64,000 nt of DNA, from assembly GCA_964016885.1 (NCBI GenBank), contig OZ024742.1, positions 223,944,001 through 224,008,000 on the forward strand, in the 5' to 3' direction. The notes beneath the pieces were generated by a model. That model saw only the letters and a program-made list of their open reading frames with translations. It made no database searches and was not told the DNA's origin. A program made the translations under genes and the position numbers. How positions within the stretch are numbered: the stretch's first letter is position 1; each line of letters starts with the position of its first letter. Below are positions 4,287 to 57,146 of the stretch, one piece after another. This stretch comes from Eledone cirrhosa. Taxonomy: Eukaryota.

Positions 4287-5540
4287 GAAAAAGTAAGTCC
4301 TTCATCAGTGACCCTCCAACCGTCCCAGGCATTTCATCGCTTTAAGGGCCATATACCTCAGGTTGGTGCGAACAACGGCTAAAAAAAGTCGTTGGGACAC
4401 GTAAATAAAGGGGACGTTAGGGTAACAAACAAAATGGTTTAAGCAGCGGAAAGTGAGAAGAAAGAGACAAGTCCCAGATTTCTATGAATATAAACTCGGT
4501 GAAATCGTGAACAAGAGACAAAAGACCATCAAACCTGGTTGAAATGTGAGCAAGGAAGGAATTTCGCACAGGTCTAATGGGGGGAAGAAGAAGAAGGGGT
4601 CTGGTCTACGAATTCGGTAAACATAAGTTTTGTGAAGTCGCAGACGAAAGAGAGAGAGAGAAAAAAAATTTCATACCGGCTTGAGCAAGAACGCGCGAGA
4701 AAAGAATTACACGCAGGTCAAACGGGAAGAAAGAGGAGGAAAGAGGAGGAGGAGGAGGAGAGGTAGTGACAGAGAATGAGTGAGTGAAAGTTGAGGAGGA
4801 GGCTAACAGAGAGAGAGACTGCTAGAAAGGGTAAATATACAAAGAACGAAAGTACCCCATTTGCAACGCGCAGCTCATCATTATTATCATATTTACACAT
4901 ATTTTTTCTTCTGCTGCCACCCGTCTGTTTCGTTCTTTGTATCTTTACCCTTTCTAGCAGTCTCTCTCTCTGTTAGCCTCCTCCTCAACTTTCACTCACT
5001 CATTCTCTGTCACTACCTCTCCTCCTCCTCCCCCTCCTCCTCTTTCCTCCTCTTTCTTCCCGTTTGACCTGCGTGTAATTCTTTTCTCGCGCGTTCTTGG
5101 TCAAGCCGGTATGAAATTTTTTTTCTCTCTCTCTCTTTCGTCTGCGACTTCACAAAACTTATGTTTACCGAATTCGTAGACCAGACCCCTTCTTCTTCCC
5201 CCCGTTAGACCTGTGCGAAATTCCTTCCTTGCTCACATTTCAACCAGGTTTGATGGTCTTTTGTCTCTTGTTCACGATTTCACCGAGTTTATATTCATAG
5301 AAATCTGGGACTTGTCTCTTTCTTCTCACTTTCCGCTGCTTAAACCATTTTGTTTGTTACCCTAACGTCCCCTTTATTTACGTGTCCCAACGACTTTTTT
5401 TAGCCGTTGTTCGCACCAACCTGAGGTATATGGCCCTTAAAGCGATGAAATGCCTGGGACGGTTGGAGGGTCACTGATGAAGGACTTACTTTTTCATATG
5501 TACCCCATTTGCAACGCGCAGCTCATCATTATTATCATAT
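4287..5540. mobile_element. Foldback insertion in (TA)n built from a 648-bp circularly permuted unit
   Basis: 4287-4851 is the near-perfect reverse complement of about 4928-5499; 4852-4892 is repeated directly at 5500-5540; CTGATGA at 5474. Confidence 0.85.
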
Positions 5541-5636
5541 ATATATATATATATATATATATATATATATATATATATATATATATATATATATATATAT
5601 ATATATATATGTGTGTGTGTAAGTAATATATATGTA

Positions 5637-6810
5637 TATATATTTAAAAGAAACCAAAGAACGCTTACATACTCAAACAGTTTTTATTTGCTTACAATGT
5701 TTCATCCATACCTTTTGGTAGGAATCCTCAGAGCTTAATAAACACAGTGTTGAGTATAAGCGCCACAGAAAATTTAACCCCTAGACATTCGTGAAACATG
5801 TAACCAATTGGTCTAGCCTATATGGTTAATATATATGTGTAATAACTTTGCCAGTTGGTTTTACAGTAACTAATATAATAAGATTGCTACAGCTCTTTCT
5901 TACTATAACTCCGATTGCTTGTGCATAGCTTGCTTTTTATGTCATGCCTGTCTATATACTTGTTAAACTCAGCTCTATCCTGTAATAACCATATTTTGCT
6001 TGTGTATGACTTGTACTTATGTGATACCCACCTATATGCTTGTGGAGCACCGATTGGCTACGTAATTCGGGTACCTACCAGTATACTTTGTGTATGTATA
6101 ACATAGCGGGGATTCTGATTACTGTGGTCTTTCTGGATGTACTGCAAGGACCTCCTAAAGCTTATATAATTATAAGTTACGGGGATCCTATCCACTCGTT
6201 TTGGTAGGAACCAGCGCTTAAATTCCTCTGGCTTCTTTATGTGCTTATAACATTTTTCTTCTTTCTGTTTTTATTTCTTTTTTGAAAACTTAAAAAAAAA
6301 ATGTTTACTTTTCTAATCTTTTACCTTTTTACTCTTTATATTATCTTCCTTTTATTTTATTTTTTTAATTATTATTTTTTTAAAATTATTTTATTATTAT
6401 TTTCTATTATTTTTTATTATATTTTAACCATTGTCTGTATCTTTTGCTTTTGCTTTTGTGTGCCATCAATTGTATCTGCATCTTGTGGAATCCGCTTGTG
6501 CCCTGGCATTTAGCTGTGGTGATTAACAACCCCAACATGAACCCCTCCTTGTTAGCCATCTCCGATCTCCCTATCTTTACCCTCTTTTGCAGTCTGATTG
6601 TTCGAGTGACTAGGCTTTGTGGAGCTTATACTCAGCACTGTGTTTATTAAACTCTGAGGATTCCTACCAAAAGGTATGGATGAAACATTGTAAGCAAATA
6701 AAAACTGTTTGAGTATGTAAGCGTTCTTTGGTTTCTTTTAAATATATCGGCTCTGTTCTTGTACATTGAGCTAACACAATACTGTCATAATACAACACGG
6801 TACATGTGTG
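5637..6810. mobile_element. Foldback PLE-type insertion with terminal hammerheads (- 5690-5734; + 6651-6695)
   Basis: About 130-bp inverted repeat 5640-5768 / 6616-6746; sense gct-CTGAGGA-ttcctacc-aaaa-ggtatggat-GAAAC-att-GTA-agc. Confidence 0.8.
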
Positions 6811-7261
6811 TTTATGCACATATGCTCCGTGCTATACGTAAATAAATATATGTATATATATATATATACTTATATATATATATATACATACACACACACA
6901 TACACACACACACACACACACACACACACACATATATATATGTATATATGTATATATATGTATGTATATATATATATATATATATATATATATATATATA
7001 TATATATATATATATATATATATATATATATATATATATATATGTATGTATATATATAACGTGCGTATGTATGAGTGGATAGACGTGCGTGTGTGTTTGT
7101 GTGTGGGTGTCAAACATATGTAGAACATAGGAGGAGGAAATAGCTAAGTAAACGCTACATGGGGGCTGGTTGGTTACGAAATGAGGTGTATCACCGAGGA
7201 AAAATGAATAAATTGACACATAGTAATTATAATGTGAAGGTTGCAGTGAGCAGGGTTTTCT

Positions 7262-54320: not shown

Positions 54321-55254
54321 ATATATATATATATATATATATATATATATATATATATATATGTGTAAATGATATATATATATGTGGATATATCAACTGA
54401 GAAACAAAATAGTATTTTGTATATATATATAGAGAGCAAATGATATGTTGATTTAAATACAAATTTAAATACATACTCTTAGGTGTTAAAATTGTGCTGT
54501 ACTTGTATAGACTGATCTGTTTCTGAGAACCAGAAATTCGAATGTTTACCTCCGATCACAGTAATTAGTATCGATCAACAATTATCGATTTTACATATAT
54601 ATAAAATTTTGTCTATTCTATTTCTTAGCTCGGTAAGCTTTTACTGAGAAACATCATAGCTATGTTATAAGAAACTTAATAAATATTATCATATATTCTC
54701 AATATTGTGTTATTCAGTTCTAACCTCCCTTTGTCGACTACCAAGATCACTAGATCTGAATACACATATACACACATACACACACATACACACACACATA
54801 CACACACATGTATGTATGCATGTATGTATGTATGTATATATATATGTATGTGTGTATGTATGTGTGTGTGTGTGTGTGTGTGTGTGTGTGTGTGTGTGTG
54901 TGTGTGTGTGTGTGTGTGTGTGTGTGTGTGTGCATTGCTTGTGTGGCCGGCCGTAGCCTAAAAGTGCACCAAACTCTATAATCTGACAAGCAATTAGAGT
55001 ACTCTTGGCAGAGTTTGCAGCCATCATGTATGTATGTATAGGTAGGAGTTAGCACGTGTGTTACTAGTTGAATAACTAAAACATAAGGAGAGAGAGGGAG
55101 AGAGAGAGAGAGAGAGAGAGAGAGAGAGAGAGAGAGAGAGAGAGAGAGAGAGAGAGGAGGGGAAAGAAACAAATGCGGAAACCATGGTGTAGGATACGAA
55201 GTTTGAAGGGGGAGAGGTGGGATGAATAGAGAAAAATGTGGGATATATATATAT

Positions 55255-55545
55255 ATAATGTATAATAAACAATACACTATAATGACCTCATTACCCGAGG
55301 TTTCTCGAATAGGACGAACACAAGATACGTCCGCATTCGTTCGTCAGATATATTCGTTCGTCAGGCAATATTGCCTTATCTGCCGAACGAATGCGGACGT
55401 CTCTTGTGTTCGTCCTGTTCGAGAAACCTCGTGTAATGAGGTAATTATAGTGTGTTGTTTATTATACATTAAATATTTAGCTCTGTTACTTACATAGAGC
55501 ATTCTTCATTCCTTTTACTTTTTTCACGGAAACTTCAACATTTAT
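55255..55545. mobile_element. Foldback with paired hammerheads (- 55282-55349; + 55378-55445)
   Basis: Sense at-CTGACGA-acgaat.cggacg..cgtcc.attcga-GAAA-CCTC..GAGG-TC-at; (TA)n flanks. Confidence 0.78.
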
Positions 55546-55609
55546 ATATATATATATATATATATATAAACAGACTAAATAAAGATGAAATATATATATA
55601 TATATATAT

Positions 55610-57146
55610 AGTTTTGCGAGTGTTTTGATATGAAATCATGTGTCGAAACAAATATTGTTATACTTGGGGAGGGTCATATTTGTGTAATATTGCCAGAATT
55701 AATAACAGAACACACTCACTGTTTGGTTGGTTTTCGCTTTTCGCTTCTGTGTCTTTTATATCGGTAATCTAATTTATTCGGTCCTCAATGTTGCCATTGA
55801 CTGACCAACGGTCAAAAATAATACAGATACAATATAGACACAAACACATATATATATAGTTTATCAAAGTTCTTTCGTTGCACATCTGCAGCATCGTCAG
55901 TGGTGCTATTGTTTCCTCCCTTTGCATTGTATTTTCTACGCCATCTTTATTTAGTCTGTTTATATATTTATTTATTTGTTTATTTTATTTTGTCTTCTTT
56001 GCGCATGCGTTTGCGTGTGTGTATAGTGTTTTGTTTGATGTGTGTTCGTGATTGGGTGACTGTGTATTGGTTAATGTATTCTATCTTTACTAGTGTGTGT
56101 TTATATGTGTTTGTTGTTATTGTGCTTGTGTATGTATTTATTTATTTATTTATCTATTTATTTATTTATACTTCTCTTAGGTCAGTGTTGTTTGTTTGGG
56201 TGTTGTTGTTATTCCATTCATTCTTTCTGTTTAGCCTTGGCCTTCTAAGTTCTATTTCACTGGCCTCTCTGATTTGCCTATCTGCTGGGTCATTTCTATG
56301 TTTAGATATTATTCTAATTTCTATGTTGTCTATGTTACCGTCATGTTGTTGTCTAGCATGTTCGTATAGTACTGAACCGTTTTTTCGTCCTTTTAGTTCC
56401 CCCCAGTGTTGGTCTATCCTTTCACCTATGCTACGAGGTGTCTCGCCTATGTATGTTGTTGTCATGTTTCTGCAAGTACCCTGTGTACATCTTATGCTAT
56501 AGACTACGTTTCTATTTTTACAGTTTATCCGGGGGTTTACATTACATATGATACATTTCCTATTAGTACAGTGGGTTTTCTTAAAAGGGTAGGTTTTGCT
56601 GATCAGGGATTTTATGGTGGTTCCTGGCTTTTCTACCACCTTAATCTTTAAGTGGGTCTTTCTCAGGGCCTTTCTACACTGGTTAGCTAATTTCCCTCCA
56701 AGAGTAGCGTCCACAAACATGACACTCTGGTATCTCTGGTTGTCGTACCATGAGGTGGCTTTCCCTATCTTATGTCTAGCCCTATCTAAGCTATTCCATG
56801 ATTTGCTCCTGGATAATGGGCAAATTCCTTTCATGTCCAGTTCTATGAGGGTCTTATACTTCTCCATGGCTCCTTCGTATACTCTGACTCTGTCTCTTTG
56901 GTTGTAGCCAGAGAACTGCATGCGGTTGATGAAGTGTTGGATGTGTCTTTCCATTTCTGTTGGGTCGCACATGCGGGACACGTTCTTCATCACTCGTACC
57001 AAATCTGCGATTAGAATATTAAACTTAGCACTACTGGACATTGCTGAGTTTTCGAGTATCAGGTATTTGGAGGCCAAACAGTGAGTGTGTTCTGTTATTA
57101 ATTCTGGCAATATTACACAAATATGACCCTCCCCAAGTATAACAAT
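55610..57146 (-). mobile_element. Penelope-like element, 5'-truncated, with about 75-bp inverted 3'-end arm
   Basis: ORF 56166..57110; arms 55652-55726 / 57073-57146 inverted; hammerhead-like - 55865-55902 (CTGACGA..GAAAGAACTT); (TA)n flanks. Confidence 0.9.
56166..57072 (-). CDS. PLE polyprotein C-terminus: RT thumb, Cys linker and GIY-YIG endonuclease (open but 5'-truncated)
   Basis: SGY, CxxxxCxx[28 protein letters not shown]. Confidence 0.88.

Follow-up and report, generated by a model that had tools for sequence, protein, structure and literature searches.

The foldback repeats of a 64,000-nt stretch of the Eledone cirrhosa genome (assembly GCA_964016885.1, contig OZ024742.1, positions 223,944,001 to 224,008,000 of the forward strand; hereafter the window) carry, as a rule, two different 3' ends. 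Judged from their sequences, these foldbacks are Penelope-like elements (PLEs) of Neptune type and Hydra type, together with tandem retrozyme-like units, and every family of them has two modal 3' ends, a short site (S) and a long site (L) 34–163 nt apart, with a second nearby L peak in some. After inspection, 122 of the 129 two-ended copies from 11 families combined one S end with one L end. The phenomenon is real, and its class and architecture are known: an inverted head-to-head 5' copy, a one-sided tail and (TA)n targeting have already been published for PLEs (Arkhipova et al., 2013, PMC3846280; Craig et al., 2021, PMC8557442). This agrees with the preliminary description of this DNA, in which inverted-copy PLE insertions and a preference of some PLEs for microsatellites were taken as established. 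To this is added a quantitative S+L rule. The foldbacks probably arise when a predicted double-strand cut in (TA)n offers two 3' ends as primers, each starting reverse transcription on RNA of a single donor, one of them at S and the other at L.

The window is AT-rich animal DNA with 78 (TA)6+ runs and a run of 200 N at 799–998, from a genome of 3.0 Gb. The genome was sampled with 60 tiles of 10 kb, evenly spaced (600 kb in total), and with the best 10–30 loci for each of eight family queries plus 20 long copies; 24 overlapping loci were dropped, leaving an analysed set of the window and 306 loci (1.57 Mb; locus labels begin with L, and families bear window positions). Hammerheads were called by motif pattern and pairing, in a strict scan and then in a relaxed scan with two controls. 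Arms were mapped onto family references by BLAST, which resolved 92 of 118 elements and left 26 without resolved arms.

Before inspection there were 131 two-ended segments, comprising 121 S+L, five S+S, one L+L and four with an atypical end. Inspection of the six same-type cases found one to be S+L, two to be false pairs, which were removed, and three to be real (L050, L270 and L027). Two of the family queries were biased to tailed arms, a bias in the direction of L+L, not S+L, and around 76 unpaired ends, with TA absent within 70 nt of the mapped 5' boundary, were left out of the classification. A family-agnostic test agreed, scoring the ends as staggered in 17 of the 19 foldbacks from tiles and in 63 of the 70 from search loci. 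Taking the commonest peak as the modal site, and leaving unscored four L sites that lacked read-through, 18 modal sites share 1–6 nt with (TA)n (3.33 on average, where the null gives 0.95; none of 20,000 draws was as high), with tandem copies showing the template beyond the end. The preliminary description had predicted variable endpoints at TA-like microhomologies and no fixed length of terminal inverted repeat (TIR). The endpoints are not variable, there being two per family and one of each per foldback, but the short A/U matches to (TA)n are indeed present, and element length is free, from 81 to 5,908 bp.

These ends bear directly on whether the repeats are miniature inverted-repeat transposable elements (MITEs) or TA-targeting foldback DNA transposons that carry PLE fragments by chance. 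The 29664 family does consist mostly of 185–203 bp hairpins in TA, and a TA duplication would be possible, though unreadable, inside (TA)n. The termini differ, however, S against L, in those 122 of 129 copies instead of forming identical TIRs, the lengths span the range just given, and long members of the hairpin family (L047 and L084) hold reverse transcriptase (RT) and GIY-YIG sequence collinear with the hairpin. A DNA transposon origin is therefore highly improbable, and the earlier suggestion that these MITE-like structures are retro-products is supported.

The polarity of the arms is also regular. All 12 loci listed in the preliminary description as head-to-head foldbacks on (TA)n proved, by self-comparison and reading, to be inverted repeats between (TA)n-type tracts, with the left arm minus-sense and the right arm plus-sense. 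Outside the window, 104 hammerhead motifs were found in the 600 kb of tiles and one in each of the two controls, an excess that excludes chance; TA lay within 200 nt on the 3' side of 62 of the tile hammerheads and on the 5' side of 19. With family references unused, an inverted copy lay upstream of 23 of 69 hammerhead-bearing tile segments and downstream of none, with 46 having no inverted copy, and the same test on search loci gave 80 upstream, two downstream and 173 with none. The foldback fraction of one-third is a lower bound, since partner arms under ~18 nt are missed. Family mapping gave 182 divergent and 10 convergent junctions, and eight of the 10 are an artefact of a reference that includes the start of the opposite arm. 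Divergent polarity is thus the rule among foldbacks, and foldbacks are only part of all copies, so that the "consistent insertion rule" proposed previously holds for the polarity of foldbacks but does not extend to every insertion.

Both regularities are difficult to obtain if foldbacks are built after insertion, either from two independent copies in the same (TA)n or by repair duplication of one copy, followed by deletion and gene conversion. Copies do cluster in TA tracts and share flanks (window 41934–41969 and 47879–47901), chained independent copies exist (L231), and a few junctions are TA-centred. This route predicts random pairing of S and L, with about half of the pairs of the same type, and either orientation, whereas 122 of 129 are S+L and divergent junctions outnumber convergent ones by ~182 to 2. 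The junctions are also tight, with 53 of 92 blunt or overlapping by 1–9 nt, and post-insertion building is accordingly improbable. More fully, the 92 resolved junctions comprise 38 with an overlap of 1–9 nt, 15 blunt, 30 with inserts and nine with a larger overlap; in long-arm junctions the overlap is mostly 1–3 nt.

The two arms of a foldback derive from one donor, as judged from sequence variants. Arms differ by 0.14–1.7% over up to 1.4 kb, and a haplotype was common to both arms in 10 of 10 true elements, while the chained pair of separate copies in L231 differs at 22 shared sites. Five smaller families follow the trend of arms being more alike within than between elements, and three gave no clear signal. 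In the autonomous 55610 family, 16 of 32 loci are two-armed S+L and six are single-armed; the remainder ran off the locus or were interrupted, these loci having been picked for long frames. Fifteen of its two-armed copies were resolved; the arm with the greater 5' extent is the S arm in eight of them and the L arm in seven. L221 is a full element with only its tail inverted, and the inverted tail piece of L212 is 17 nt long. Across all families, the 92 resolved elements comprise 43 symmetric (within 15 nt), 20 S-longer, 20 L-longer and nine tail-only.

This geometry is informative with regard to self-priming, in which priming happens once, the first complementary DNA (cDNA) or an antisense RNA folds back on a palindrome to serve as its own template, and the product is then resolved by the endonuclease at a TA-like site, leaving a tail on one end. 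Self-priming on an antisense template was proposed by Arkhipova et al. (2013), and the tail has been read as a product of endonuclease-mediated resolution (Craig et al., 2021). Such a process can account for the TA-like ends and for the 43 symmetric foldbacks, several of which are arranged around short palindromes, and the greater likeness of arms within elements agrees with it. A self-copy must lie within its template, yet the tailless arm extends further 5' in 29 of the 92 resolved foldbacks (20 S-longer and nine tail-only) and in eight of the 15 long copies. Each arm of an S-longer foldback has sequence that its partner lacks, which means that neither was copied from the other; the S-longer and tail-only classes both call for two templated syntheses. 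In addition, the ends of the tail are RT start sites in vitro (Frangieh et al., 2024, PMC11167929). The S+L rule and the arm geometry together speak against self-priming as a general cause, and we regard it as unlikely.

The simplest model is priming by both ends of the cut, one at S and one at L, which would proceed as follows. The GIY-YIG domain would cut both strands of (TA)n, and each cut 3' end would anneal by a few A/U bases at S or at L. The two cDNAs would extend towards the RNA 5' end and be joined there by short microhomology or a palindrome, the template being either one RNA read twice or two sister RNAs of one donor. Should the L-primed copy halt at the S-primed copy, only the tail would be inverted; at 4852 and 24156, where the templates are tandem, a similar arrangement lies displaced by one unit in the upstream direction. 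Should it displace the S-primed copy, or read a sister transcript, overlapping arms would result. Symmetric hairpins may form when both copies run to the same RNA 5' end or stop, and single-armed copies may be those in which the second priming failed or was lost. In vitro, an anole PLE protein cuts and extends both strands, starting at two sites that bound the tail (Frangieh et al., 2024).

Several observations weigh against double priming. Inverted copies are missing from 46 of 69 hammerhead-bearing tile segments, and in the autonomous family six of 32 loci have just one arm, which ends at S and has its 5' end on TA. The symmetric foldbacks (43 of 92), often around a short palindrome, are explained by self-priming too, gene conversion between arms could create the shared haplotype, and TA-like ends would also follow if the endonuclease trimmed an intermediate at TA-like sites. 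There are three true same-type pairs, L050, L270 and L027. The start sites of the anole protein are not homologous to the cut DNA and show no strand difference (Frangieh et al., 2024). A search for empty sites returned no orthologous empty site, solely independent TA-filled junctions. Finally, the cut, the primer and the intermediate are all predicted from sequence.

A more detailed extension of double priming is tentative and rather doubtful. Here, a dimer of the PLE enzyme on one RNA might set one cut end at S and the other at L, read the RNA twice and stutter in a telomerase-like manner on the annealed bases. In this way it might write some of the adjacent (TA)n, (CA)n or (TC)n and hence make sites for its own later insertion, and whole retrozyme arrays might be inserted by this machinery too. 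As a separate observation, the repeat beside the 3' end follows the last letters of the element. In the 39055 family, (TC)n and then (TA)n follow ...TTC in nine of 29 search loci, and those nine have no (TC)n at the 5' side (the loci concerned in this family are L273, L276, L279, L281, L283, L288, L291, L296, L300 and L051). In the 5637 and 14611 families the adjoining repeat likewise follows the last letters; (CA)n comes after ...TTAC. Such matched repeats reflect either an RT that stutters as it initiates or replication slippage at a later time, for which the junction was the seed.

The identity of the elements is evident from their coding members, whose RT and GIY-YIG domains support the retro-origin proposed previously. 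Open frames of 1,000–1,171 aa contain RT motifs and a C-terminal YIG domain; Pfam profiles and PDB sequences gave no match to these open reading frames (ORFs), and homologues of the ORFs carry PF00078 and PF01541. The 55610 protein gave 27,891 first-look candidates in the genome, of which the 150 scored were 95–100% identical with open frames of up to 1,171 aa, and its nearest named homologue is an Octopus vulgaris protein (68%). As in PLEs, there are pseudo-long terminal repeats (pLTRs) from partial tandems, an inverted 5' copy and a one-ended tail, the tail of the 47901 and 55610 families being the start of the ORF. A predicted hammerhead motif, called by pattern and pairing, lies in the pLTR or 3' untranslated region (UTR); Rfam returned only sub-threshold microRNA-like matches and one weak sub-threshold hammerhead.

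The L221 protein has a CX2-5CxxC linker and a CCHH motif in its C-terminal endonuclease, matching the definition of Neptune in Craig et al. (2021), and the 55610 and 47901 families are Neptune-type by these motifs, which Nematis shares. A long in-frame Asn-rich insert precedes the RT in L221 and L223 (ORF residues ~250–420), like the inserts of rotifer Penelope elements. The L047 ORF has a C-terminal GIY-YIG, a CxCX5C linker, CxxC and CxH motifs, no CCHH and a (TA)n target, as described for Hydra-type elements (Craig et al., 2021). L047 is itself 5'-truncated, and by sequence the 190-bp MITE-like hairpins at 29667, 49634 and 54124 are 3' ends of this element. The endonucleases of the 12013/28337 family and of the copy at 1311–3626 are related to that of L047.

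Four families consist of non-coding units in tandem, each unit with a hammerhead-type motif: 4287 (636 nt), 23772 (316 nt), 41247 (545 nt) and 41967 (592 nt). No PLE protein match was found inside the window copies of these units, and the tandem-unit families obey the same S/L end rule as the coding families. The 592-nt unit (window 41970–47877; L063 and L042) has a TTGATAA-core hammerhead in which the 3-8 pair is kept as U-A, and its units are 99.9% identical and of very high depth in public contigs. It occurs in two of 60 tiles, and a genome search with it gave zero matches, the search being one that skips very common words. The hammerhead motif of the 636-nt unit is not type I. In this family (window 5430–5490, 4300–4360 and 8995–9065; L050, L053, L167 and L318) the block order is cleavage site, GAAA, CTGATGA, with stems I and III pairing and covarying across variants and only one clear pair in stem II. 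This is the order of type SGC, there described from environmental sequence (Eckert et al., 2023, PMC10085705).

Within the window, polarity is marked by type I hammerhead motifs at 5637, 12013, 23772, 26536, 28337, 39055, 41247 and 55255 (six also in the strict scan). At 41967 the marker is a hammerhead of the 592-nt unit with a variant core (TTGATAA ... GAAAC); 12013, 47901 and 55610 are oriented by remnants of GIY-YIG coding sequence, at 13242–13679 (−), 48078–48417 (+) and 56169–57089 (−), respectively. At 4287 the sense had been given conditionally, from a CTGATGA block; the same strand has the cleavage-site and GAAA blocks with covarying stems I and III, so the condition holds. Flanks are impure TA or (TACA)n at 5637 (left), 6852, 24220 and 39752.

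Among the tandem-unit foldbacks, that at 4287 has a left arm of the 636-nt unit with an S end (4287–4851, −) and a right arm that begins just beyond S of the upstream unit and holds one full unit and the tail, with an L end (4852–5536, +). At 23772, the left arm is the 316-nt unit plus tail with an L end (23771–24156, −), its template start being the template end of the right arm (24157–24220, +), which stops ~35 nt short of the modal S site of the family. The foldback of the 545-nt unit (41248–41933) has an S arm at 41248–41771 (−) and an L arm at 41772–41933 (+). The foldback at 41967 contains ~5.2 copies of the 592-nt unit with an S end on the left (41970–45040, −) and ~4.8 copies with an L end and a 163-nt tail on the right (45041–47877, +).

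Of the Neptune-type foldbacks, that at 47901 has a left arm of pLTR and a 60-nt tail, which is the ORF start, with an L end (47902–48076, −), and a right arm of GIY-YIG remnant and 3' UTR with an S end (48077–48837, +). The left arm at 55610 (55611–57076, −) holds the RT thumb, the GIY-YIG, the 3' UTR hammerhead and the tail with an L end, and overlaps by 3 nt at the junction with a right arm of 71 nt of pLTR and an S end (57074–57144, +). The Hydra-type foldback at 12013 has a left arm with the GIY-YIG remnant, a hammerhead and an L end (12014–13975, −) and a right arm with an S end (13976–14413, +); another member of its family (28339–29630) has an L arm at 28339–28814 (−) and an S arm at ~28851–29630 (+). 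The hairpin at 29667–29859 is S on the left and L on the right, with sisters at 49634–49821 and 54124–54319.

Further hammerhead foldbacks are that at 5637, with an S-ended left arm bearing the hammerhead (5638–5767, −) and a right arm whose ~104-nt tail has its L end in impure TA (5768–6852, +); a 203-bp hairpin with a hammerhead in each arm, L left and S right (26536–26738); 39056–39752, with an S arm at 39056–39550 (−) and an L arm at 39551–39752 (+) ending in (TACA)n(TA)n; and 55258–55542, with an S arm at 55258–55361 (−) and an L arm at 55362–55542 (+). Five foldbacks were absent from the earlier list: those at 29667, 49634 and 54124, one of the 47901 family at 26764–26989, with its S arm on the left and a right arm of the tail plus 7 nt, and one of the 26536 family at 57241–57349, with only a tail piece inverted and then a sense arm to S. 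Single-armed copies lie at 14611, 38771 and 1311–3626 (−), the last a Hydra-type counter-example with TA on both sides, a hammerhead at 1412 and its endonuclease at 3288–3596. Many copies of the 29664, 28337, 26536 and 55255 families share a 5' stop, ~57, 165, 64 and 94 nt upstream of S, respectively, giving hairpins of near-constant size; the stop could mark a defined 5' end of the RNA or be imposed by structure.

An assembly or library artefact from fold-back chimeric reads could be suspected at 41967, where the arms are 99.9% identical, and the window junctions at 45040 and 57074 are unbridged by the public reads and contigs examined, which for single-copy joints says nothing either way. 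Chimeric reads would be indifferent to S, L and hammerhead polarity, though, and older foldbacks have diverged arms. Another study's raw short reads contain 203 and 159 that run from the 592-nt family's S end into (TA)n; other joints of antisense ORF to sense pLTR occur in raw reads with 1–3 read starts each, where ligation chimeras are possible. An artefact is thus extremely improbable.

Other repeats were also seen. A small TA-flanked family with a partial hairpin, in which no hammerhead was found, lies at window 11600–11680, 14516–14610, 26423–26501 and 49249–49330. Long interspersed nuclear element (LINE)-type RT fragments are present at 36254–37231, 9620–11314, 20001–22960 and 39869–41228, the last open over 450 codons with TA tracts on either side. 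A many-copy repeat resembling a short interspersed nuclear element (SINE), often beside TA, lies at 27284–27494, 16346–16494, 30123–30335, 49389–49601, 50405–50591, 52786–52873 and 53461–53570. In L053 (7025–7826) and L165 (1433–2418), short S- and L-ended arms flank 500–760 nt of unrelated sequence, which may have been captured in trans or have come in by a later insertion.

The origin of the tandem and inverted structures of PLEs, and of their tail, has been named as an open question (Craig et al., 2021; Frangieh et al., 2024). One S and one L end on arms from a single donor would assign the two start sites known in vitro to opposite sides of a single cut, making the mechanism testable. The MITE-like hairpins and inverted satellite arrays that abound in such genomes are retro-products, which annotators of repeats might wrongly class with DNA transposons, and the arrays offer genomic support for the insertion of retrozymes by PLE enzymes.

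A close analogy outside PLEs is twin priming of L1, reportedly set out by Ostertag and Kazazian in 2001, in which two target ends are said to prime on one RNA, leaving the 5' part inverted head-to-head with short microhomology where the arms meet. There the second site is reportedly an internal match that arises by chance, with hardly any overlap of the arms; in the present foldbacks the two sites are fixed and lie near each other, and arm overlaps extend to kilobases. Among PLEs, the 55610 and 47901 families resemble Neptune-type elements in their single long ORF with RT followed by a C-terminal GIY-YIG, CX4CxxC linker and CCHH, and in their 3' UTR hammerhead and microsatellite bias. No statement of an S+L rule or of double priming for PLEs was found in the literature covered, older subscription papers and the supplementary figures of Frangieh et al. 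(2024) lying outside it. Endonuclease-containing PLEs are alike in the inverted, 5'-truncated neighbouring copy, mostly head-to-head, the tail at one end running into the ORF start, the partial tandems, the (TA)n target without a readable duplication and the Asn-rich ORF insert (Arkhipova et al., 2013; Craig et al., 2021). Published tails are 30–40 nt, compared to 34–163 nt here, where the tail rule has been counted (122 of 129); unlike the published cases, the end rule spans two clades and non-coding tandem units, and the arm geometry argues against the published self-priming reading.

Poseidon of Anolis carolinensis (PAc) is similar in that both strands are cut and extended, the target is AT-rich and two internal RT starts bound the genomic tail (Frangieh et al., 2024). 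Its starts lie in an AC-rich stem loop, are non-homologous to the target and are alike for the two strands, whereas here there are short TA matches and one of each site per insertion, and the available text on PAc does not tie double extension to inverted repeats. The parent of the 29664 hairpins resembles Hydra-clade PLEs, including Hydra-1_Obim, in its motifs and (TA)n insertion, a likeness of description rather than of sequence, and the available description of that clade holds no foldback geometry (Craig et al., 2021). Lastly, non-LTR retrozymes are non-coding hammerhead tandem units proposed to be PLE-dependent, for which local amplification by unequal crossover is discussed (Li, Clavereau and Pollet, 2026, bioRxiv 10.64898/2026.07.22.740005). 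The retrozyme-like arrays of Eledone cirrhosa show S and L ends and head-to-head inversion; arrays with the ends of coding PLEs, and inverted as these are, point to insertion of the whole array by a PLE enzyme.

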